Shown: one piece after another, positions 1 to 62,238 of the stretch | Numbering within the stretch: position 1 is the first letter of the stretch | Layout: every line of letters starts with the position of its first letter | IMG/VR virus record: IMGVR_UViG_3300028591_000008 | Location: 1-64,000 of that record | DNA from: a virus | Taxonomy: Duplodnaviria > Caudoviricetes | Length of the DNA stretch: 64,000 nucleotides | Direction: 5' to 3' (one strand) | The notes under the pieces: model-generated | The model's database searches: none | Seen by the model: only the letters and a program-made list of their open reading frames with translations | Told to the model about the DNA's origin: nothing | Translations under genes and position numbers: made by a program

Positions 1-92
1 TTTAGTGTCTATACTATATCACATTTTTGGAAATAATACAATAGTTTTTTTAGACGTTCTACGTCTAAGTTCTTTTTTGAGAAAACCGGGGA

Positions 93-410
93 TTACTCCC
101 CGGCCTTCTCCTTCTTCTTGGCCTCGGCCTTGGCCTTCTTTTCAGCGGCAGCCTTCTCGCGCTCGGCCTTCTTTTCGGCCTGCTCCTGGAGCTTCATCTG
201 GTAGTCGGTGCGCTCCTGCATACACTCGTCATAGTCTTTCTTGACGACTTTCACGACGATTTCCAGCACGCCCTCTTCGCCGTCCTCGACGATCGGCAGG
301 TTGCAGGAATTGGAAGTGACGAGGGCAACATCTTCGCCCTGTTCGGACAGGAAACCCATAATCTGGTTGATGTAACGGGCACGCGCGGCATTGGCAATAG
401 CAAGTTTCAT
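93..410 (-). CDS. Hypothetical early protein with K/A/E-rich coiled-coil tail
   Basis: AAGGAG RBS, own promoter, TAA stop inside a terminator hairpin. Confidence 0.85.
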   Translation of the reverse strand: MKLAIANAARARYINQIMGFLSEQGEDVALVTSNSCNLPIVEDGEEGVLEIVVKVVKKDYDECMQERTDYQMKLQEQAEKKAEREKAAAEKKAKAEAKKKEKAGE

Positions 411-554
411 TTGGTTTTATCTCCTTTCCTTTTGTGATTATAATATACCACACTTTTAGGAAGATTACAAGGGGGAGACTTAGACGTTCCACGTCTAAAT
501 TCGATTTTGGAGAAACTTCACCACATTAAAGTAGTGAAGTCTCTCTTTTGGGAT

Positions 555-1304
555 TTAACGAAGAGTAATTTCCGTTTTGTCCTTATTGATACGGATTTTT
601 GTATAATCGAAATAATAGTCCGTTTGTTCTGCCGTCTTGATATGCAAAGTCTTTTCTACTTTGCGTTCAATGGAACGCTTCGCCATATATTCGCCGGAGA
701 AGTCCGCGCCGTTATCAATACACGCGAAAAGAATCTCCGTTTCAATCTCCGCGTCATTCAATGCCGTATGCGCTTCAATGAAGTCCGTATCATTGAAGAT
801 ATAACGGTAAACCGTTTCGGCGGTGGTGGAATAGTTACCAGTCTCCGTATAATAACTGTTTTCATCACAGAACGCTTTATATATATCATCAATGAGAGAA
901 GCATGAACAAAACCGCGAATATCCTTTACCGGGATATTGTCAAACGGATTGTTACATTTGTACCAGTCACAGTTAAAAGCGAAAACTTTCTCATCGAAAG
1001 AAGAATTGAAAGCATACGCAATCTCAACAGAGAGATTCTTGAAGTCCCGAATCATCTGCTGGCAGATGTAACCGAACTTGTCCATAACAGTAGTGCGGGC
1101 GCGCATTGCGGCGACATACAAAGGACGCTTGTCCGCGTAGTATGCAGACTGAAAAAGCGGGAGATTGTGCCACACTTGTTCCACAACAAAGGAACGGCGG
1201 CAGAGAATCGCGCGGGATTCCGTATCAGCAATGACATAGCCGATATTATAGCAAAAAGGCTTCTCCAAAGAAGTAGTTTCAGTGTCAAAAACGCAGATGT
1301 TCAT
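555..1304 (-). CDS. DEDDh-family 3'-5' exonuclease
   Basis: Motifs VFDTETT, AFNSSFD and HTALNDA; AAGGAG RBS. Confidence 0.88.
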   Translation of the reverse strand: MNICVFDTETTSLEKPFCYNIGYVIADTESRAILCRRSFVVEQVWHNLPLFQSAYYADKRPLYVAAMRARTTVMDKFGYICQQMIRDFKNLSVEIAYAFNSSFDEKVFAFNCDWYKCNNPFDNIPVKDIRGFVHASLIDDIYKAFCDENSYYTETGNYSTTAETVYRYIFNDTDFIEAHTALNDAEIETEILFACIDNGADFSGEYMAKRSIERKVEKTLHIKTAEQTDYYFDYTKIRINKDKTEITLR

Positions 1305-1449
1305 ATTCAGAACTCCTTTATATAGTGTTCAGTGGGAGTAACTTCTTTTCCCTCCTGACATTATGAATTATAGCAAAATTATAGGAGAAAGTCAAGAACT
1401 GGTTTTAGACGTTCCACGTCTAAGATGGATTTTGTGAAAAAGGGACTTT

Positions 1450-1878
1450 TTACAGTCCCTTTAATACGCTAAAGATTTCTTTTTCTGTATATGCTCCATC
1501 GCCCCACGCTTCCCGGTTATGCGCTTCATCGTCAAAAAGGATTCCGTTCCCGAAAAGCTCTTTCGGTGTGCCATAGGGGAGAATCTGGATGGAAGTGAAC
1601 TTGACCGAGTGCAAATGAGTTTCGAGCCATTCCTTTTTGACGGCGGCCACCGCTTTGTTATATGCGGCCGAGCCGTTGCGGCTGGTCCAGCTAATGACGT
1701 TGACGGTCCATCCGTCACGAATCAGCCGATTCAGAATCCGCGCCAGGGCCTGGAGATTGACGAGCGGGCGCGCCACAGCGTAGGGCCGCACATCTTCATG
1801 CAGAAGATCCTCTAACCAATTAGGGACGCCGTAAAGATCGGCAATTGTGCCGTCCATATCAAAGTAAATATTTTTCAT
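1450..1878 (-). CDS. HAD-superfamily 5'(3')-deoxyribonucleotidase-like phosphatase
   Basis: YFDMDGT (DxD motif I) and ILFDD (motif IV); start taken at MKNIYF after the RBS. Confidence 0.85.
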   Translation of the reverse strand: MKNIYFDMDGTIADLYGVPNWLEDLLHEDVRPYAVARPLVNLQALARILNRLIRDGWTVNVISWTSRNGSAAYNKAVAAVKKEWLETHLHSVKFTSIQILPYGTPKELFGNGILFDDEAHNREAWGDGAYTEKEIFSVLKGL

Positions 1879-2001
1879 ATTTTGTTTACCCCTTTCTCTA
1901 TCGTGATTAAAGTATATCATAATTTTCGGAGAATTGCAAGAGGAGACTTTAGACGTGAAACGTCTAAATTATATTTTGGGAGAGATTTTACTCTCCCATC
2001 T

Positions 2002-2220
2002 TTACATAAAAAGTATATAAAGAATAATGCCGCAAATAATAGGAAAGACACCATAACGGATGACTTGCACGATTGCAAAAATAGGATAAAAGAGCAGCCA
2101 AGGGCCATCTTCACGAGACATGCTCCAATTGCAAGTCATTAAATTCCATTCCCAATGTTTGGCAACACGTGCCATCGTCCACAAGAAGCACAGAATAATA
2201 ATTAAAAAAGTTTTATCCAT
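2002..2220 (-). CDS. Small membrane protein (about 2 TM segments)
   Basis: Hydrophobic N- and C-terminal stretches; AAGGAG RBS; own promoter. Confidence 0.75.
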   Translation of the reverse strand: MDKTFLIIILCFLWTMARVAKHWEWNLMTCNWSMSREDGPWLLFYPIFAIVQVIRYGVFPIICGIILYILFM

Positions 2221-2357
2221 TTGTTTTATCTCCTTTCTTACTGTATCTATATATTATCATAAATTTTGGGATTTGTCAAACCTCTATTTTAGACGTTGCA
2301 CGTCTAAACCCAAAAAATTACGAAACGGTAACATTTCTGTTACCGTTTCGATTTGGG

Positions 2358-2711
2358 TCACTCGGCCAGAGCCAGAGAGTAGATCACGCGACGCGTCTTG
2401 TCGATCTTGGCCTCGCGCTTGGTGATAACACCATTGGCCAGAAGCACCTTACAAGCGGCGGTCACCTGTCCCGGCGTGATGTTGAGCTGGGCGGCAATAC
2501 CGTCACGGGTGCAGACCTCGTGCGGATTGGTCAGGAAGAAGTTGCGGACAGCGTCCACACGGCCGGCGGCCTCGCGCTGTTCCTTGGTGGGGGTCGCCTT
2601 GCGCTTGGCGTTCTTCTCGTCCAGCTTCTGGATCAGAACGCGGCTGGCCTCGTCCATGGAATCGGAAATGTGAGCGTCAAGAACGGCCTGGAAGTACTCG
2701 CGAGTAGTCAT
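2358..2711 (-). CDS. MTTRE-type protein with C-terminal winged helix-turn-helix (paralog A)
   Basis: Start MTTREYF after AGAAAGGA; C-terminus TRDGIAAQLNITPGQVTAACKVL...RVIYSL; clearly similar to 2894-3232. Confidence 0.8.
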   Translation of the reverse strand: MTTREYFQAVLDAHISDSMDEASRVLIQKLDEKNAKRKATPTKEQREAAGRVDAVRNFFLTNPHEVCTRDGIAAQLNITPGQVTAACKVLLANGVITKREAKIDKTRRVIYSLALAE

Positions 2712-2893
2712 AGTTTTTTCCTTTCTGCGCGTTTGCGCTTGCGGTAGGTCGCAACCCTTATTTTTATTTTGTCCCTTTCCCTTGGGACAATTGTATATTA
2801 CCATACTTTCGGGAGAATTGCAATACCCTATTTTAGACGTTCCACGTCTAAATCGTAATTTTTTGAAAAGGGGAGATTTCTCTCCCCTTTCGG

Positions 2894-3232
2894 TCATGCG
2901 ATGGAGTAAGCGACCTTGCGCGCCTTGTCCACCTTGATTTCGGACTTGGCGACCAGTTCGCCCAGTGCCTTGCACGCGGCACCCGCCTGAGCGGGAGTCA
3001 TGTCGAGAACTCCGGCGATGGTGTCACGGGTCACGGGTTCGGTCTGCTCCTTGAGGAAGGCAAGGACAGCTTCACGGCGAGCCGCAGCCTCCTTCTTCTC
3101 CTTCGTCTCCGTGCCCTTGCGCTTCTCATTCTTTGCGTCGAGCGCGGCGATCAGCTCGGCGGCCTTCTCGGTCAGCTCGGCAGGCAGGTTCTCAGCGTTG
3201 ACGATAGCGGTGTAGAATTCACGAGTGGTCAT
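2894..3232 (-). CDS. MTTRE-type protein with C-terminal winged helix-turn-helix (paralog B)
   Basis: Start MTTREFY after AGAAAGGA; TRDTIAGVLDMTPAQAGAACKAL...KVAYSIA. Confidence 0.8.
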   Translation of the reverse strand: MTTREFYTAIVNAENLPAELTEKAAELIAALDAKNEKRKGTETKEKKEAAARREAVLAFLKEQTEPVTRDTIAGVLDMTPAQAGAACKALGELVAKSEIKVDKARKVAYSIA

Positions 3233-3414
3233 TGTATGGTCCTTTCTGCACATTAGTGCCACGGCGTTTGGTCGCCACCCTTATTTATTGCCGGGGTTCC
3301 TTTCCCCCTTGCAAGTATAATATAACACAATGGTTGGAGAATTGCAAGAGGGGAACTTAGACGTTACACGTCTAAATGGACTTTTATGAAAAAAACGGGA
3401 GAAAATCTCCCGTT

Positions 3415-3594
3415 TTAACTAAATGGCAAAAAATTTGGAGCAAAAGCGAGAATAGCAAGCGCGCAGAAGAGAAGACCGAAGAAAGTCATAGAACCTACCC
3501 ACGCTTCAAAAAAGTCGGCGTCTTTTTGATGCCATAGCCACCATCCACCGAGAGACATGATGACGAGAATCAGTGCGATAAGATATTTACTCAT
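3415..3594 (-). CDS. Small 2-TM membrane protein
   Basis: MSKYLIALILVIMSLGGWWLW...FFGLLFCALAILAF; GAGG RBS inside the end of the upstream gene. Confidence 0.7.
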   Translation of the reverse strand: MSKYLIALILVIMSLGGWWLWHQKDADFFEAWVGSMTFFGLLFCALAILAFAPNFLPFS

Positions 3595-3595
3595 T

Positions 3596-3796
3596 TCAAT
3601 CCTCTCTTGCGCATCCGCTACAGTAACAGTGGCCATCGTCGTCGATCAATGCGGACGGTGACGACATTGTCATGCCGCAACATGTGCACGCCACGATCAT
3701 CGGCAGACCGTTCTCAGAAAACCAACTTCCGGGAATGGAGTCGTGCGGCATTTCCAGACCGAGATCCTGTTCAACAAAATTTCTGAAATTTTTCAT
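3596..3796 (-). CDS. Small zinc-ribbon protein
   Basis: CTCC...CYCSGC; AAGGAG RBS. Confidence 0.75.
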   Translation of the reverse strand: MKNFRNFVEQDLGLEMPHDSIPGSWFSENGLPMIVACTCCGMTMSSPSALIDDDGHCYCSGCARED

Positions 3797-3915
3797 TTTG
3801 GGAATCTCCTTTCCTTTTGTAAGTATATATTACTATATTTTTCAGAAAATTGCAAGAACTGTCTTAGACGTTCCACGTCTAAACCTAATTTTGGGAGAAA
3901 ATTTCTCCCAAAACT

Positions 3916-4152
3916 TTAGTGGATTTGCCGCACGAAAAATTCTTTGATAATTTCGCCGGTTTCCCAACTGGTTTCGGCATACGTTACGCCGCCGTCGATG
4001 TACTCAACGACGTGGAGATCGTTACCACGGAAAAGATGCGCAGCGCACAGCTCACGAGCTTCGTCAAAGCTCTGGCACGGGGCGCCGATATACCGGTCGC
4101 GGAGATACGGATCGTCAACAAGGTGATTGCGCTCAACAACAGAAATAATCAT
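3916..4152 (-). CDS. Hypothetical early protein
   Basis: AGGGGG RBS, own promoter and terminator. Confidence 0.7.
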   Translation of the reverse strand: MIISVVERNHLVDDPYLRDRYIGAPCQSFDEARELCAAHLFRGNDLHVVEYIDGGVTYAETSWETGEIIKEFFVRQIH

Positions 4153-4284
4153 TTTTTAATCCCCCTAAAAAGTTTTTTGTTTGTTCCCTTGGAACGATTA
4201 TATATTACTATATTTTTGGGAGTTTGTCAACGGTCAAACTTAGACGTAACACGTCTAAAAAGAAAAATGGGAGAAAATCTCCCA

Positions 4285-4470
4285 TTACCAACCAAAATCA
4301 AAACGGTCTTCCCAATATACCAGAAAAGAAAAATCAGGATCAACAATGCCGACTGAAAAAGTCGCATCTTCAGTCCACAAAAATTCTACTTCTTCTTCGA
4401 CTTCTTCTTTTGTATCGAAAATGAGTTCTTCGATGCAACCATTGTCGTATTCAATAATAAGTTTATACAT
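4285..4470 (-). CDS. Small, very acidic hypothetical protein
   Basis: GGAGG RBS before MYKLIIEY; E/D-rich. Confidence 0.72.
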   Translation of the reverse strand: MYKLIIEYDNGCIEELIFDTKEEVEEEVEFLWTEDATFSVGIVDPDFSFLVYWEDRFDFGW

Positions 4471-4567
4471 TTTGGAAACCTCCATTTCTTTTGTAACTAT
4501 AATATATCACTTTTTGGAATAAAAGTCAATCCTCTGAATTTAGACGTTTTACGTCTAAACTATTTCT

Positions 4568-4762
4568 GAAAAAAAATGGCGGGACGTCCGGAGGTAAAAG
4601 ACGTTGCCCGCCCCGTCGTATCAATTTTAGGAGAGTTTCGGGAAGTGACAGAAGGCATTAAGTTTATCACTCGACTTTTTGGAGAATTTCTTATCCTTTT
4701 CTGCACTTACCGGCGTTCTTATTTCGGTTGCCCTACTTTGTCCGCCCGACTTCCCTCTCTGT
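4568..4762 (-). ncRNA. Putative ~190-nt structured non-coding RNA
   Basis: Palindrome-promoter unit 11 has no ORF with a clear RBS. The 5' end GAGAGGGAAGU pairs with ACUUCCCGAAACUCUC (4631-4646). It ends in a GGCGGG..ACGUC/GACGUCCCGCC hairpin plus U8. Confidence 0.6.
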
Positions 4763-4845
4763 GATTATAATATACTACTATTTTGGGAGAATGTCAATTC
4801 CTCGTTTTAGACGTCACACGTCTAAATCTACTTTTGGGAGAAAAA

Positions 4846-4995
4846 TTATTCTCCCAAAAACACGTCTCGACTTCGCCAGAATTTTAGATCTTCATCTTCA
4901 TACTTTTCTTTTTCTCTAATTGCTTTCACGAGAAAATAAATAGAGAAAATAATTACCAGACTTACCAGTACTCCCCAGCTCACCGGATTATCCAT
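4846..4995 (-). CDS. 49-aa single-TM peptide (not in ORF track)
   Basis: MDNPVSWGVLVSLVIIFSIYFLVKAIREKEKYEDEDLKFWRSRDVFLGE; AAGGAG RBS; promoter TTGCAA-17-TATAAT at 5026-5054; TAA inside a terminator hairpin. Confidence 0.75.
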   Translation of the reverse strand: MDNPVSWGVLVSLVIIFSIYFLVKAIREKEKYEDEDLKFWRSRDVFLGE

Positions 4996-5059
4996 TTCCA
5001 GCTTCTCCTTTCATTTTCTATATATATTATATCACGAATTTTTATAGCTTGCAAGTTTT

Positions 5060-5181
5060 GGATTGAGCCGCAGCTTACAGCTTTTGTGCGTTTGCGAGGT
5101 ATATCGCTTGCGTGGGGATTCGCGGCGCTGCGCTGCAGGGATAGTGGCTGATTGCCCGCTCTTGTCTATCCCTTGCCCACT
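5060..5181 (-). ncRNA. Putative ~120-nt structured non-coding RNA or leader
   Basis: Follows promoter TTGACC-17-TATAAT (5188-5216); no ORF or RBS. Stem AGGGAUAG/CUAUCCCU, plus nested GCAGC/GCUGC and GCAGC/GCUGU stems enclosing two small hairpins. Confidence 0.5.
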
Positions 5182-5343
5182 ATGGATATTATACCACTAT
5201 CGGCGGCCGCGGTCAAGCGACAGACTTAGACGTGCCACACGTCTAAGTCGGTTGCATACAATTGGTTATACATATCTAACTCAAACACGTCTAAATTGAT
5301 TGTATGTAATCAGTTAGATATGTCTAACTACTAAGCAAGAAGT

Positions 5344-5365
5344 AAAGCAAGTAATACTTGCTTTA
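5344..5365 (-). terminator. Hairpin after the 5366 gene
   Basis: AAAGCAAGTA-A-TACTTGCTTT inverted repeat right after the stop codons. Confidence 0.55.
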
Positions 5366-5548
5366 TCATTCACAACTACTTTTATATTCATTATACGCGT
5401 CAAGTATAGACTCCCAACTACTATGAGCACATGGGGCGCTGCCGTAGGCATTCAGATTCCAAGCTTGAGCAGTATTCAATTTGCCCTTGCTTTCAAAGCG
5501 TTTCTTGTCTTTCTGCGCTTGTCTATCCAGCTCTTCCATGTAGCTCAT
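5366..5548 (-). CDS. Hypothetical protein
   Basis: GAGGAG RBS before MSYMEEL. Confidence 0.7.
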   Translation of the reverse strand: MSYMEELDRQAQKDKKRFESKGKLNTAQAWNLNAYGSAPCAHSSWESILDAYNEYKSSCE

Positions 5549-5582
5549 TTTTATATCTCCTCTCTTTTGTATGGAGGGCTTT

Positions 5583-5780
5583 TCAGCCCTCCACAAAGAA
5601 CCGTTCGAAGTAGTTTCGAGTATATCCGCTCTCAGTAGAAGCGGGATACAGCTTGCCATCAACTTCCAAATCCCACCAGCTATTCAGCCGAAAGAATATA
5701 CTGTGCATCTCTTCAGCGTTTGTAACGCCGATACGGATACCGGTCTCAGGGACGGTGATAATTCTCATTGTAGTTTTCAT
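5583..5780 (-). CDS. Hypothetical protein
   Basis: AGGAGG RBS; lies directly downstream of the hammerhead-like element. Confidence 0.75.
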   Translation of the reverse strand: MKTTMRIITVPETGIRIGVTNAEEMHSIFFRLNSWWDLEVDGKLYPASTESGYTRNYFERFFVEG

Positions 5781-5807
5781 TTTTGTAACCTCCTGTAATC
5801 AATTTGT

Positions 5808-5857
5808 AGCGGTTTCGCTCTTGCTTATCAGCGTCGGACTTTTACCGACGGACCGCC
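5808..5857 (-). ncRNA. Type III hammerhead ribozyme-like element (variant core CUGAUAA)
   Basis: Minus strand reads GCGG-UC-CGUCGG-UAAAAGU-CCGACG-CUGAUAA-GC-AAGA-GC-GAAA-CCGC: stem III, GUC cleavage triplet, stem I, core, short stem II, GAAA, stem III'. Confidence 0.8.
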
Positions 5858-5872
5858 CGGGCCGACGGGGAA

Positions 5873-6346
5873 TCATTCCCCGTCGAACCATTCCTCTAAG
5901 GTCATAAGACTGTTTTCATACAGGGCGTCCAACAGCTTGAAGTATTTAGCGCCGTGCGGCTTATTCAACTTATTGTTCCAAAAAGTCTGAATCGTAACCT
6001 TGTGTTGTCCGGAAGTGCTAACCTTTTCACGAATCAGCCCACAGCTTTCAAGGCATTCCAGAAAAGTCACACGATCAAGAATAAAGCCCTCTTGAGCCGT
6101 CACGGGTAAAGCCGGATTGACAACTGGGACATAGATAACAAGGGAAACGCCCTTGACCAACTTTTCGCCGTAGTTGCCAAGCTCACCCGCGGCCGTCTTG
6201 ACTTCATAATTCTTGTACGCTTTGCGGAAGTCTACGCGTCCTTGCTTGGAAACAACAGCTTTCCGATTAAAAGCGGCCTTTAAGTCACGTTCAAAGGTTT
6301 TACCATTAGCGCCGCTATCCGTCATTTTATAACCATAATCAGTCAT
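5873..6346 (-). CDS. PD-(D/E)xK restriction-endonuclease-fold protein
   Basis: GKTFE...VDF...YEVKT pattern; AGGAGG RBS. Confidence 0.6.
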   Translation of the reverse strand: MTDYGYKMTDSGANGKTFERDLKAAFNRKAVVSKQGRVDFRKAYKNYEVKTAAGELGNYGEKLVKGVSLVIYVPVVNPALPVTAQEGFILDRVTFLECLESCGLIREKVSTSGQHKVTIQTFWNNKLNKPHGAKYFKLLDALYENSLMTLEEWFDGE

Positions 6347-6581
6347 TTTGTTACCTCCTAATCAATACTTTTAATATAGCTTATTTACTCTTATTTGCTT
6401 GCCTTTAGACGCTTGCGCTCTTCACGCGGCCACCATGGGCAGAGGCTTTTCTTACTATGTTCAGTTTTGACGGTTTATACTGTTTGTTACCGGATTGTAA
6501 CAAGTCCAGTCTTTACAACAAGGGTATCACTTAAGATCTTGGCCCGCTCATATCGTGGCTTGGCTTCCCCGATCTGACTAT

Positions 6582-6610
6582 AATATAGCACATGGAAAAA
6601 CAAATTACAA
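6582..6610 (-). promoter_or_regulatory. Sigma-A promoter heading the early region (no palindrome), with ~230-nt untranslated leader
   Basis: TTGTAA-17-TATATT with TG extension. Confidence 0.7.
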
Positions 6611-6804
6611 GCCCTATTTTTCAAAAAGACGGCTAAAAAATTACTTTTGTCATTTTGCACAAAAATAGGGGCGGGGTGCTTCTGGGATTTATGCAAAATG
6701 ACGAAGGCTCAAGTCGGGACCCCTGGCTACAATTCCTACCGAAATAAAAATTACAATTCCCACAGAAATAAAAATCCCTTTCTTATATTTCCCCTCCCCC
6801 TCAT

Positions 6805-6818
6805 CTACTTAAATATAG
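6805..6818 (+). promoter_or_regulatory. Candidate phage late-promoter motif CTACTTAANNATAG
   Basis: CTACTTAAATATAG here and CTACTTAAGAATAG at 30096-30109; both intergenic, upstream of late genes that have no obvious sigma-A promoter. Confidence 0.45.
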
Positions 6819-6844
6819 AAAAATATGTACAGGAGGTACTTTAA

Positions 6845-8575
6845 ATGCCCCGTTCTTATTCTGAGTGGATGAGGGCCAAACGCAACTTTCTTAGCTCCCA
6901 AACTGAACGCGTTGCCCATATTCCTTATCCCGATGATGCCGTCGTATATGAACGTCCATCATCTAACTACTACTGGGAATCCCGACGCTAGGCCGCACTT
7001 CAAAATGTCCCTTCATCCCTCAACCTCAACTTCCCAATCGACCGCATAGAACAATTCGTGCGTGCTGCCGCAGATTTTGAGCGTGATAAAGAAAACGCTT
7101 TCCTCGACAAATTCTATACAGGTCCAGACCTAAAAAACGAATCCATCACCGACAAATTCAACATTCTCTTCCAAGGCCGCGACATCTACGCACGAGTCAA
7201 CGACCGCATCAAAACCATTTTAAATACGCGGCAATTTCAAAAAAATAAAACCTATGGTAAACGAGGCGGCGCAACCCACGAAAACTATACAGGTATGGCG
7301 CCTAATCTATCTGCACTTTTTGCGTCTTACCTCGAAACCGCCCTCCAAGGCCCAATGTAGAAGATGAGAGAAAAAATTAACGGGAACTCTTCTAGTGCCG
7401 ACATGTAGCGATATTTTGACTAGGCTTTTGAAGAGGCTATATTAATTGCATCTGAACGTATGACATAGATTACAGATGATGTGGGGTATGGGACTGGAGT
7501 AGAATGGAAGCCAATTGATGATATGCTTAATAAAGACCCGCGCGCAAAGCAACTCTTTATGGAATCATTGCGCGGGGCCATTGGTAATGACAATATCCAA
7601 ACTCTATTGGATACGATGCGCGCGCAGAAAAAATCCGGCGTCACCAAACAACAAACTCGTACCCTTATAAAACAAAATCTCAAAAATATGGGCGGCCGCA
7701 CGGCCTCAATTGGTGGTACTGTAGTAGAAAATGCAATGGCAATGCTGGCATCTTATATTAATGGTATGGCCGGTGGTTCTAGTAATTTACACTATTAGAT
7801 GAGCGCCGAAGGCATTTCACGTAATATGGTAAAAACAGATACCGCAATGATTTTTAGCGCAAGTAAAGAAATTGATACTGGCGCGGTAATGTAGTCGTTA
7901 AACGAGTACTTAAGCTCAAATAATGGAGATATATTAAAAGCCTATGATAAAGTTTAGGACTTTTATAATAAGTGGGAAAAAGATTTAGATGAACTTTATA
8001 CTGTATTTATAAACTCTAAGAACTATGGAATAGGCGCGGATGGGCGTAATTATGTAGATACTTAGAGCGGATCATTAGAAGAGCTTCCCCAATTTTTATA
8101 GAGGGCAGGCATAGATGTGGGTTCTGCGCATGACTTCCTCGCATTAGCCTACAATACAGGTGAAGGTGCGGTGCGCGCGGGCTATCGAACAGAAGTAATG
8201 GAAGAATGCGTCAATGCGCTTAAGGCAGCCGCGGCAAAACTAATGTTTGATGACTATTAGACTTTAGGACGCGGAGAAGGAAACTCTATACATATGTATT
8301 ATTTAAGTGGTAAATACGTGCCGGCTTCTATCGTATTCTATGCTATGGCAGATGCGGCCCACGAAGCAAAAGTTAATTCTAGAGCTACTATTACATTGCC
8401 GTCTCCTGTTGATGATCAAGGCCCTGCATGGAGTAATTTTAGAGGCAAAACAGATGCGGACTTTAAAGAATAGCTTTGGGCGCATTGGCAAAAAGAATAT
8501 GAAGATGCAAAAGCTGCGTCTTCATGGTCAGTTTCTTTTACTTTACGTATTAAAGATTTATTATCTATGCCATAA
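6845..8575 (+). CDS. Hypothetical 576-aa protein (TAG read-through)
   Basis: AGGAGG RBS; ORF-track fragments 7058 and 7481 are in one frame joined by TAGs; TAA at 8573. Confidence 0.75.
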
Positions 8576-62093: not shown

Positions 62094-62238
62094 ATATTTT
62101 CTCCTTTCATTATATATAAATATTATAACATAAAAATATCGAGAAGTCAAATTTACTTCTCGATACCTTATTATAATTATATAAATATTCTTTACGATGG
62201 TTTTATTATATCATAATTTTAAATAAAAATCAAATTTA

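Follow-up and report, generated by a model that had tools for sequence, protein, structure and literature searches.

Why should one promoter after another in a phage genome be preceded by the same palindrome, at nearly the same distance from the -35 box? The question is raised by one end of a 64,000-nt stretch of DNA (hereafter the window), positions 1 to 64,000 of the 124,253-bp record of an uncultured rumen/gut phage (IMG/VR record IMGVR_UViG_3300028591_000008; Caudoviricetes), in which the initial annotation had described an array of 12 self-contained expression cassettes on the minus strand, each headed by the sequence TTAGACGT-N3-ACGTCTAA. The array is confirmed here as a real, non-random feature, larger than had been claimed, with 17 sites rather than 12, and the 19-bp palindrome is probably the operator of a dimeric, sequence-specific regulator acting at early promoters. 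Positions refer to the window unless given as genome positions.

The palindrome and the promoters that it precedes

In the window, the palindrome is present in 11 exact copies at positions 50-4825, where shuffled sequences yield an expectation of 0.01, and in a 12th copy with an N5 instead of an N3 centre (5226-5246). The ends of the record overlap by 127 bp, indicating a circular assembly, and the scan of the whole genome that had been suggested at the outset added five copies beyond the record origin (genome 121881, 122134, 122564, 123370 and 123685), in the same block and nowhere else. All 17 sites share one orientation, are intergenic and lie within a single minus-strand block of ~7.6 kb, the remaining ~116 kb of the 124-kb genome containing no copy of the motif. 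The 8-mer half-site is equally confined: its 35 genomic copies, with 3.8 expected genome-wide, all fall within the array zone. The arms of the palindrome are perfect in 17/17 sites and show no compensatory changes, the sequence itself being invariant, and the reported difference between fixed arms and a variable centre and flanks extends to 151 homologous junctions, in which the information content is 2.0 bits per position in the arms, against 0.2-0.4 bits in the 3-nt centre and less than 0.5 bits in the flanks.

Two sites, located at the ends of the array, depart from the pattern, namely, the first one (5226), with its odd N5 centre, and the last one (genome 121881), which is not followed by a recognisable promoter in register. 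At the latter, the palindrome and the next 24 nt (ATTCCATTTTTGTCAAATTTT, minus strand) are invariant in four relatives, with both flanks diverged, and this segment (genome 121855-121899, outside the window; L202:9857-9901) looks like a distinct conserved element closing the array. A plus-strand promoter overlapping the last palindrome was considered and rejected, as it is not conserved in locus L077.

The units of the array are built in the same order: stop codon, stable hairpin, 3-21 nt, palindrome, 8-10 nt, -35 box, 17 nt, extended -10 box, ribosome-binding site (RBS) and one or two small genes. The hairpins are frequently preceded by an A-run and followed by a T-run and include six GGGAGA-loop-TCTCCC terminator stems, found where the initial annotation had placed them; the series of palindrome-to-(-35) gaps that it had given for the 12 junctions of the window (8, 9, 9, 9, 9, 9, 9, 8, 9, 10, 9 and 9 bp, from low to high coordinate) was reproduced exactly. 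A sigma-70-type promoter lies 8-10 bp downstream of the palindrome at 16 of the 17 sites; on the other side, 16/17 palindromes are preceded by a stable hairpin at 3-21 nt, with no fixed spacing, so that the register of the palindrome is locked to the promoter and not to the terminator hairpin. Apart from these elements, the junctions within the genome are dissimilar, with 52% identity over 89 bp and a longest exact match of 10 nt in the median and 21 nt at most, which indicates that the 16 arm bases are kept by selection rather than by recent copying.

The core promoters of the array are near-consensus, with an extended -10 box. Counted from the -35 and -10 boxes, the site is centred near -54 relative to the start, so that the palindrome is found where an UP element would be. 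The palindrome is absent from other near-consensus promoters (TTGACT-17-TGnTATAAT) of the genome and therefore marks one promoter class. The second, palindrome-free class is found across the rest of the genome, for instance, at 98711, 101896, 103979, 112050 and 115363 on the plus strand and at 62150, 59810 and 49810 on the minus strand.

Helical phasing and putative operator types in related phages

A scan with the exact pattern recovered 77 loci on viral contigs, many with 5-23 sites; in bacterial genomes, the only arrays were on short phage-like contigs of metagenome-assembled genomes (MAGs) of Clostridia, Eubacteriales and Acutalibacteraceae, next to unrelated single sites in Arthrobacter and in bacteria of the candidate phyla radiation (CPR). 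The gap between the palindrome and the -35 box was determined for 395 array sites that have a good promoter, drawn from about 50 related contigs; it measures 7-10 bp at 248 sites, 17-21 bp at 83, 27-31 bp at 40 and 37-42 bp at 14, with almost none in between. The means of the gap classes (8.75, 18.4, 28.8, 39.7 and 51.6 bp, from 249, 83, 41, 15 and 7 sites, respectively) follow one another at a step of ~10.5 bp, and the Rayleigh R reaches ~0.8 at periods of 10-11 bp. The gap is thus quantised in steps of ~10.5 bp, that is, helically phased. The filler of the long gaps is A/T-rich, UP-like DNA, and different gap classes are found together inside single arrays.

The sequence of the operator changes between lineages in an unchanged geometry. 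Our survey covered 79 loci around homologues of the early DEDDh exonuclease encoded in the array, 51 of which contain at least six copies of one palindrome with the same 19-bp span and a lineage-dependent sequence. At least eight operator types of identical 19-bp geometry can be told apart, that is, at least seven besides that of this phage (TTAGACGT), including TTAGACGAA-N, TTAGATGT, TTAGGTGG, TCGTACGT, GTAGTCTG, TTGGATGTA-N and TTATCTGTT-N. The distance to the -35 box is 7-10 bp in every type except TTAGACGAA, where it is 12 bp, with minor classes one to three turns farther away. At the orthologous junction upstream of the exonuclease gene, one type A phage and three type D phages differ in the operator sequence but not in its position. 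Lineage-specific operators in a fixed geometry look like the product of a co-evolving regulator/operator pair. Distant protein relatives occur in Herelleviridae. Among the closest cultured or deposited relatives, no such palindrome was found in the region around the exonuclease homologue of phAss-1, in a scan that did not include the Enterococcus Schiekvirus phages also matching the exonuclease.

The ~10.5-bp gap steps and the lineage-specific operators in a conserved geometry strongly support the proposal, already made in the initial annotation, of a dimeric protein bound in helical register beside RNA polymerase. In the reading that we favour, a dimeric, sequence-specific DNA-binding protein would occupy the palindrome, the half-site centres of which are 11 bp apart, about one helical turn, and from its position at about -54 on one face of the helix would touch or compete with RNA polymerase, the most likely contact being with the alpha C-terminal domain of the enzyme or in the UP-element zone; all 16 early promoters of the block would thereby be placed under one switch. 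We infer that the binder contacts RNA polymerase and that it is encoded, with fair likelihood, by the phage rather than by the host. As for the direction of the switch, a class I-type activation of a delayed-early class, with the activator encoded in the palindrome-free leader or terminal operons, has about an even chance of being correct, shut-off of the early promoters is a somewhat less probable alternative, and a dual role in activation and shut-off takes the small remainder. The array has the marks of a phage operator array, with one short motif in many copies, confined to the phage and located at regulatory positions, in a sequence that differs among related phages. It also resembles class I-type systems in that the sites occupy one helical face at whole-turn steps, but not in the promoters, which appear to be near-consensus rather than weak and factor-dependent.

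Several points weigh against this reading. Near-consensus core promoters with an extended -10 box should fire without an activator, which weakens the activation version in particular. The sites behind the phasing statistics come from related phages and are not phylogenetically independent. None of the three phage candidates for the binder discussed below (the winged helix-turn-helix (wHTH), cluster 0 and PD-(D/E)XK-like proteins) covaries cleanly with the operator type. Finally, the MAG bins that bear on a host regulon are weak host proxies, which makes a host factor possible.

Candidate binders and competing explanations

The initial annotation had pointed to the wHTH proteins of the array as possible binders. 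Their fold is predicted to be a winged helix (AlphaFold2 pLDDT 88.7; weak MarR/ArsR/PadR matches), but the same operator is accompanied by different recognition helices, those of the three paralogues of this genome being unlike those of another complete type A phage; moreover, the family is common in relatives without arrays and was not detected in one complete type F array genome. The comparison thus does not support this role. One detail is suggestive: within one wHTH orthologue group, the helix differs by operator type, LLRQ standing in type A where type D has VKK, with the inner ACGT and the helix start kept.

The family denoted cluster 0 ranked first in an association test over all open reading frame (ORF) families, being present at 47/51 array and 5/28 non-array loci; it is fused to a wHTH domain in types B, C and G and adjoins a wHTH gene at the end of the present array. 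Against it as the binder counts that type A and type D phages have almost the same N-terminal globular domain. A search for its fold gave no Pfam, PDB or Foldseek match. The structure predicted for the family (93-410 and genome 121261-121584, both minus strand; AlphaFold2 pLDDT 94) consists of an alpha helix, three beta strands and a long Lys/Glu-rich helix. Its mirror image in distribution is a 136-aa family found at 13 of the 28 non-array loci and at none of the 51 array loci (e.g., L234, L240-L243), which may be an alternative regulator of phages without arrays.

The third candidate is the 157-aa protein encoded first in the palindrome-free leader operon, for which an invariant D39...E48-x-K50 signature and a resemblance to PDDEXK families in language-model features suggest a PD-(D/E)XK nuclease fold. 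Its gene precedes the first palindrome in 27/27 loci and is present in 5/5 further complete array genomes and in 0/5 non-array genomes. Two points count against it as the binder: no copy was detected in complete genomes of types C, E and F, and operator A goes together with four different subfamilies of the protein. The protein evolves very fast, with 23-63% identity where the neighbouring exonuclease shows 70-86%.

That no phage protein follows the operator type would be expected if the palindrome were the site of a host transcription factor, for example, a GntR/FadR-type winged-helix dimer, borrowed by the phage to boost or time its early promoters, the types differing as the hosts differ. 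GntR/FadR-type operators have a GT-N3-AC core; this central GT-N3-AC is kept in most of the operator types, and in Arthrobacter and Paenarthrobacter a near-identical site precedes an MFS-GntR(FCD) operon. Furthermore, operator type A occurs in several phage sub-lineages, the early proteins of which are only 50-60% identical. A whole-genome search for a phage-encoded GntR protein (PF00392) gave only a 14.9-bit fragment, the cut-off being 27 bits. We nevertheless regard a host factor as unlikely. Outside the phage-like contigs, five array-carrying MAGs contain one site per genome with two or fewer mismatches, equal to the reversed-pattern control, and type A and type B contigs occur together in one MAG bin, two findings that argue against a host regulon. 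In addition, the single sites with the right promoter architecture are all on viral or phage-like contigs, and the 17-40 perfect sites of an array would titrate a low-copy local regulator.

A different role was suggested by the proposal, also made in the initial annotation, that the junction is a mobile module for the gain, loss and shuffling of early genes. Shuffling is compatible with the comparison: cassette order is not conserved among relatives, and the breakpoints fall in junctions. In close relatives, the backbone is kept and three cassettes are permuted (0-19-6 here; 19...6-0, 6-0 and 0-6 elsewhere), and many single cassettes are inserted or replaced, whereas distant relatives have a very different order; the ends of BLAST segments lie in junctions, and a promoter module and its cargo may have their best matches at different junctions. 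Copying of a mobile module, by contrast, finds no support, as exact matches between junctions are only ~10 nt long. Taken by themselves, these rearrangements, the nuclease-like gene that heads all 27 loci and keeps the catalytic D...ExK, and the change of operator type across whole arrays between close relatives, which needs some concerted process, could mean that the junction is primarily a recombination module, similar to the PeSL cassettes of T4-type phages or to integron cassettes, with the palindrome as a crossover or cleavage site, possibly for the PD-(D/E)XK-like protein, and a merely secondary regulatory look. We consider this highly unlikely. A recombination site would have no need of phasing to the -35 box across four helical turns, the junction homology within the genome is too short for efficient homologous exchange, and both the apparent lack of the nuclease-like family in complete type C, E and F genomes and the sharing of one operator by four of its subfamilies speak against it as well. 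Because viable rearrangements must break in intergenic DNA regardless, motif-bounded insertions and deletions are a weak test. In view of the low similarity of the junctions within the genome and of the phasing, recombination is to be seen as a side effect and not as what the palindrome exists for, and PeSL-like shuffling is, given the variable order with breakpoints in junctions, a plausible by-product: next to their role under the proposed regulator, the terminator-operator-promoter junctions would serve as passive seams for the gain, loss and reordering of cassettes among relatives.

Scarcely credible is a hairpin in RNA or DNA acting without a specific protein (a back-up terminator, processing site or cruciform), since, despite a possible 8-bp stem, a position right after terminators and look-alike 9-1-9 hairpins scattered in CPR bacteria, the palindrome comes after the T-run of the terminator and before the start site and is thus mostly untranscribed, its sequence and not pairing alone is conserved, and its distance is fixed to the promoter and free to the terminator hairpin. 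Single sites in CPR bacteria were rejected as instances of the feature, being 9-1-9 hairpins with variable complementary flanks. The CPR hairpin, TTAGACGTC-S-GACGTCTAA, is repeated within individual genomes of Giovannonibacteria, Nealsonbacteria, Saccharibacteria and others (loci L082-L159), several times in each and far above chance, and behaves like a repetitive extragenic palindromic (REP)-type repeat.

Cassette contents, known parallels and significance

The junctions and cassettes of the window are listed in Table 1. The cargo had initially been described as nuclease, phosphatase, membrane peptides, wHTH proteins and apparent non-coding RNAs, a description that was only partly confirmed: the cassettes encode an NT5C-like phosphatase, with a score just under the cut-off, two DEDDh exonuclease paralogues, a GNAT protein, the wHTH paralogues and small membrane peptides. 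Two cassettes, 4568-4762 and 5055-5187 (minus strand), have no credible ORF behind the promoter and are thus candidates for small RNAs; an Rfam search of window positions 1-7000 found nothing. The leaders of the two wHTH genes in the window (2712-2794 and 3233-3318, minus strand) are ~70-80 nt long and share common motifs ending in GCAGAAAGGA at the RBS. Upstream of the palindrome of the first junction there are a single half-site (5287-5294) and a short, TTAGA-like palindrome, and ~160 nt downstream of this junction a second, palindrome-free promoter (5026-5054) drives the 49-aa membrane peptide. At the other end, the last site of the array is followed by a two-gene operon with its own consensus promoter.

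Table 1. Junctions, cassette genes and leader operon of the palindrome array in the window (gap, distance in bp between palindrome and -35 box)
Feature	Position	Strand	Details
Junction 12 of the window	13-110	-	Hairpin 79-110, palindrome 50-68, gap 8, -35 TTGTAT / -10 TATAGT at 13-41; serves GNAT cassette spanning the record origin
105-aa cluster 0 family protein	93-410	-	Predicted alpha-beta3 domain and long charged helix; 107-aa paralogue at genome 121261-121584
Junction	442-545	-	Hairpin 510-545, palindrome 480-498, gap 9, promoter 442-470
249-aa DEDDh-type 3'-5' exonuclease-like protein	555-1304	-	Invariant D7/E9, N100/D104, H179/D184; paralogue at genome 122608-123270
Junction	1367-1462	-	Hairpin 1439-1462, palindrome 1405-1423, gap 9, promoter TTGACT-17-TATAAT 1367-1395
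142-aa NT5C-like 5'-nucleotidase, HAD type	1450-1878	-	E 4.5e-5, 23.9 bits, just under the Pfam cut-off of 24.8
Junction	1911-1998	-	GGGAGA/TCTCCC hairpin 1977-1998, palindrome 1949-1967, gap 9, promoter 1911-1939
72-aa hydrophobic peptide	2002-2220	-	
Junction	2251-2350	-	Hairpin 2321-2350, palindrome 2289-2307, gap 9, promoter 2251-2279
117-aa winged-helix protein (wHTH paralogue 1)	2358-2711	-	Long 5' leader
Junction	2795-2891	-	Hairpin 2866-2891, palindrome 2833-2851, gap 9, promoter 2795-2823
112-aa winged-helix protein (wHTH paralogue 2)	2894-3232	-	Long 5' leader; third paralogue, 128 aa, at genome 120736-121122
Junction	3319-3416	-	Hairpin 3392-3416, palindrome 3357-3375, gap 9, promoter 3319-3347
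Two-gene cassette	3415-3796	-	66-aa Cys-rich protein 3596-3796; 59-aa membrane peptide 3415-3594
Junction	3827-3915	-	Hairpin 3887-3915, palindrome 3864-3882, gap 8, promoter 3827-3855
78-aa protein	3916-4152	-	No family hit
Junction	4202-4286	-	Hairpin 4266-4286, palindrome 4240-4258, gap 9, promoter 4202-4230
61-aa acidic protein	4285-4470	-	No family hit
Junction	4501-4612	-	Hairpin 4578-4612, palindrome 4540-4558, gap 10, promoter 4501-4529
Junction	4769-4860	-	Hairpin 4831-4860, palindrome 4807-4825, gap 9, promoter 4769-4797; cargo is the ~190-nt ORF-less stretch 4568-4762
49-aa membrane peptide	4846-4995	-	
First junction of the array	5188-5330	-	N5 palindrome 5226-5246, gap 9, promoter 5188-5216
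Palindrome-free leader operon heading the array	5366-6625	-	Promoter-like TTGTAA-17-TATATT near 6590-6625; leader ~230 nt
Leader-operon genes	5873-6346; 5583-5780; 5366-5548	-	157-aa PD-(D/E)XK-like protein (invariant D39, E48, K50) first, then two small ORFs

The closest known systems appear to be the PeSL cassettes in architecture and plasticity, SPBRE/MrpR-type repeats in logic, and class I activator sites and P2 Ogr in geometry. The PeSL cassettes combine a terminator stem-loop with a strong sigma-70-type early promoter and flank small orphan early genes in a plastic region, in which relatives differ by the insertion, loss and swapping of cassettes at the modules (PMC2839356, PMC4122927). 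The junctions described here are likewise composites of terminator and promoter (16/17), with small, mostly orphan cargo, and insertions, deletions and replacements among relatives are bounded by the motifs. However, the PeSL upstream region is AT-rich and has no invariant palindromic operator, neither helical phasing nor lineage-specific operator switching has been described for PeSL, and PeSL copies recombine and form mini-circles, whereas the present junctions lack such mutual similarity; the host and phage group are also unrelated. The SPBRE of the Bacillus prophage SPbeta is a 15-bp repeat at about ten promoter regions, bound by the phage-encoded master repressor MrpR/YopR, a protein with an enzyme-derived fold that was found decades after the repeat (PMC10516654). 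As in SPbeta, one short repeated element at many phage promoters would provide joint control; unlike that temperate phage, where the system maintains lysogeny, the phage studied here has no lysogeny module in the parts of its genome that were read, and a fixed register to the -35 box, terminator-operator-promoter cassettes and tandem arrays of 17-40 copies have not been reported for SPBRE.

Class I activator sites include those of CRP at -61.5, -71.5 and -82.5, and the dyad of P2 Ogr and P4 Delta lies about -55 of late promoters. They share with the array a dyad upstream of the -35 box, whole-turn positions and one factor per promoter class, but their core promoters are weak and activator-dependent, whereas the array has near-consensus cores, a far more invariant site and tandem cassettes. 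The stoperators of cluster A mycobacteriophages (L5 gp71) are present in tens of copies, are lineage-specific and co-evolve with the repressor; they are asymmetric 13-mers in transcribed regions, block elongation in lysogens and are not known to be phased to promoters. The likeness thus extends to the many copies of one short site with a lineage-specific sequence, the sites described here being, by contrast, palindromic, intergenic and promoter-phased. The host-takeover module of the Bacillus phage SPO1 consists of about a dozen short operons for small host-takeover proteins, every operon having a strong early promoter and a terminator of its own, and resembles the present block in its short, self-contained early operons and small proteins; to our knowledge, no shared palindromic operator has been described upstream of SPO1 early promoters. 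The array is set apart from all of these systems by uniting a palindrome of invariant sequence, a strict phasing on the helix and self-contained cassettes in tandem order. No relevant paper emerged from a literature search for the motif or for palindromes phased to early promoters of phages, so that the claim of an undescribed system holds for the searched literature, although the kind, operator arrays and PeSL-like cassettes, is known.

A broader scenario is speculative and distinctly unlikely: a large clade of TAG-recoded gut/rumen phages would run its whole early programme under a private 19-bp 'address label', read by a fast-evolving phage regulator with at least eight orthogonal specificities, so that co-infecting close relatives would be unable to switch each other's early genes on or off, and the label, together with the conserved nuclease-like gene heading every array, would form a seam for the exchange of ready-to-express cassettes within a specificity group. 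If the palindrome is an operator of the kind that we favour, it would allow the early (host-takeover) regulon to be recognised simply, from sequence, across a large group of uncultured gut/rumen phages, the early genes of which are almost all orphans. The at least eight operator variants in one geometry, with placements at one, two, three and four turns, would represent a natural experiment on the communication between an upstream factor and RNA polymerase in Firmicutes-type hosts and could supply orthogonal promoter/regulator pairs. The idea of ready-to-express cassettes, developed for PeSL, would thereby be extended from T4-type phages to an unrelated group.

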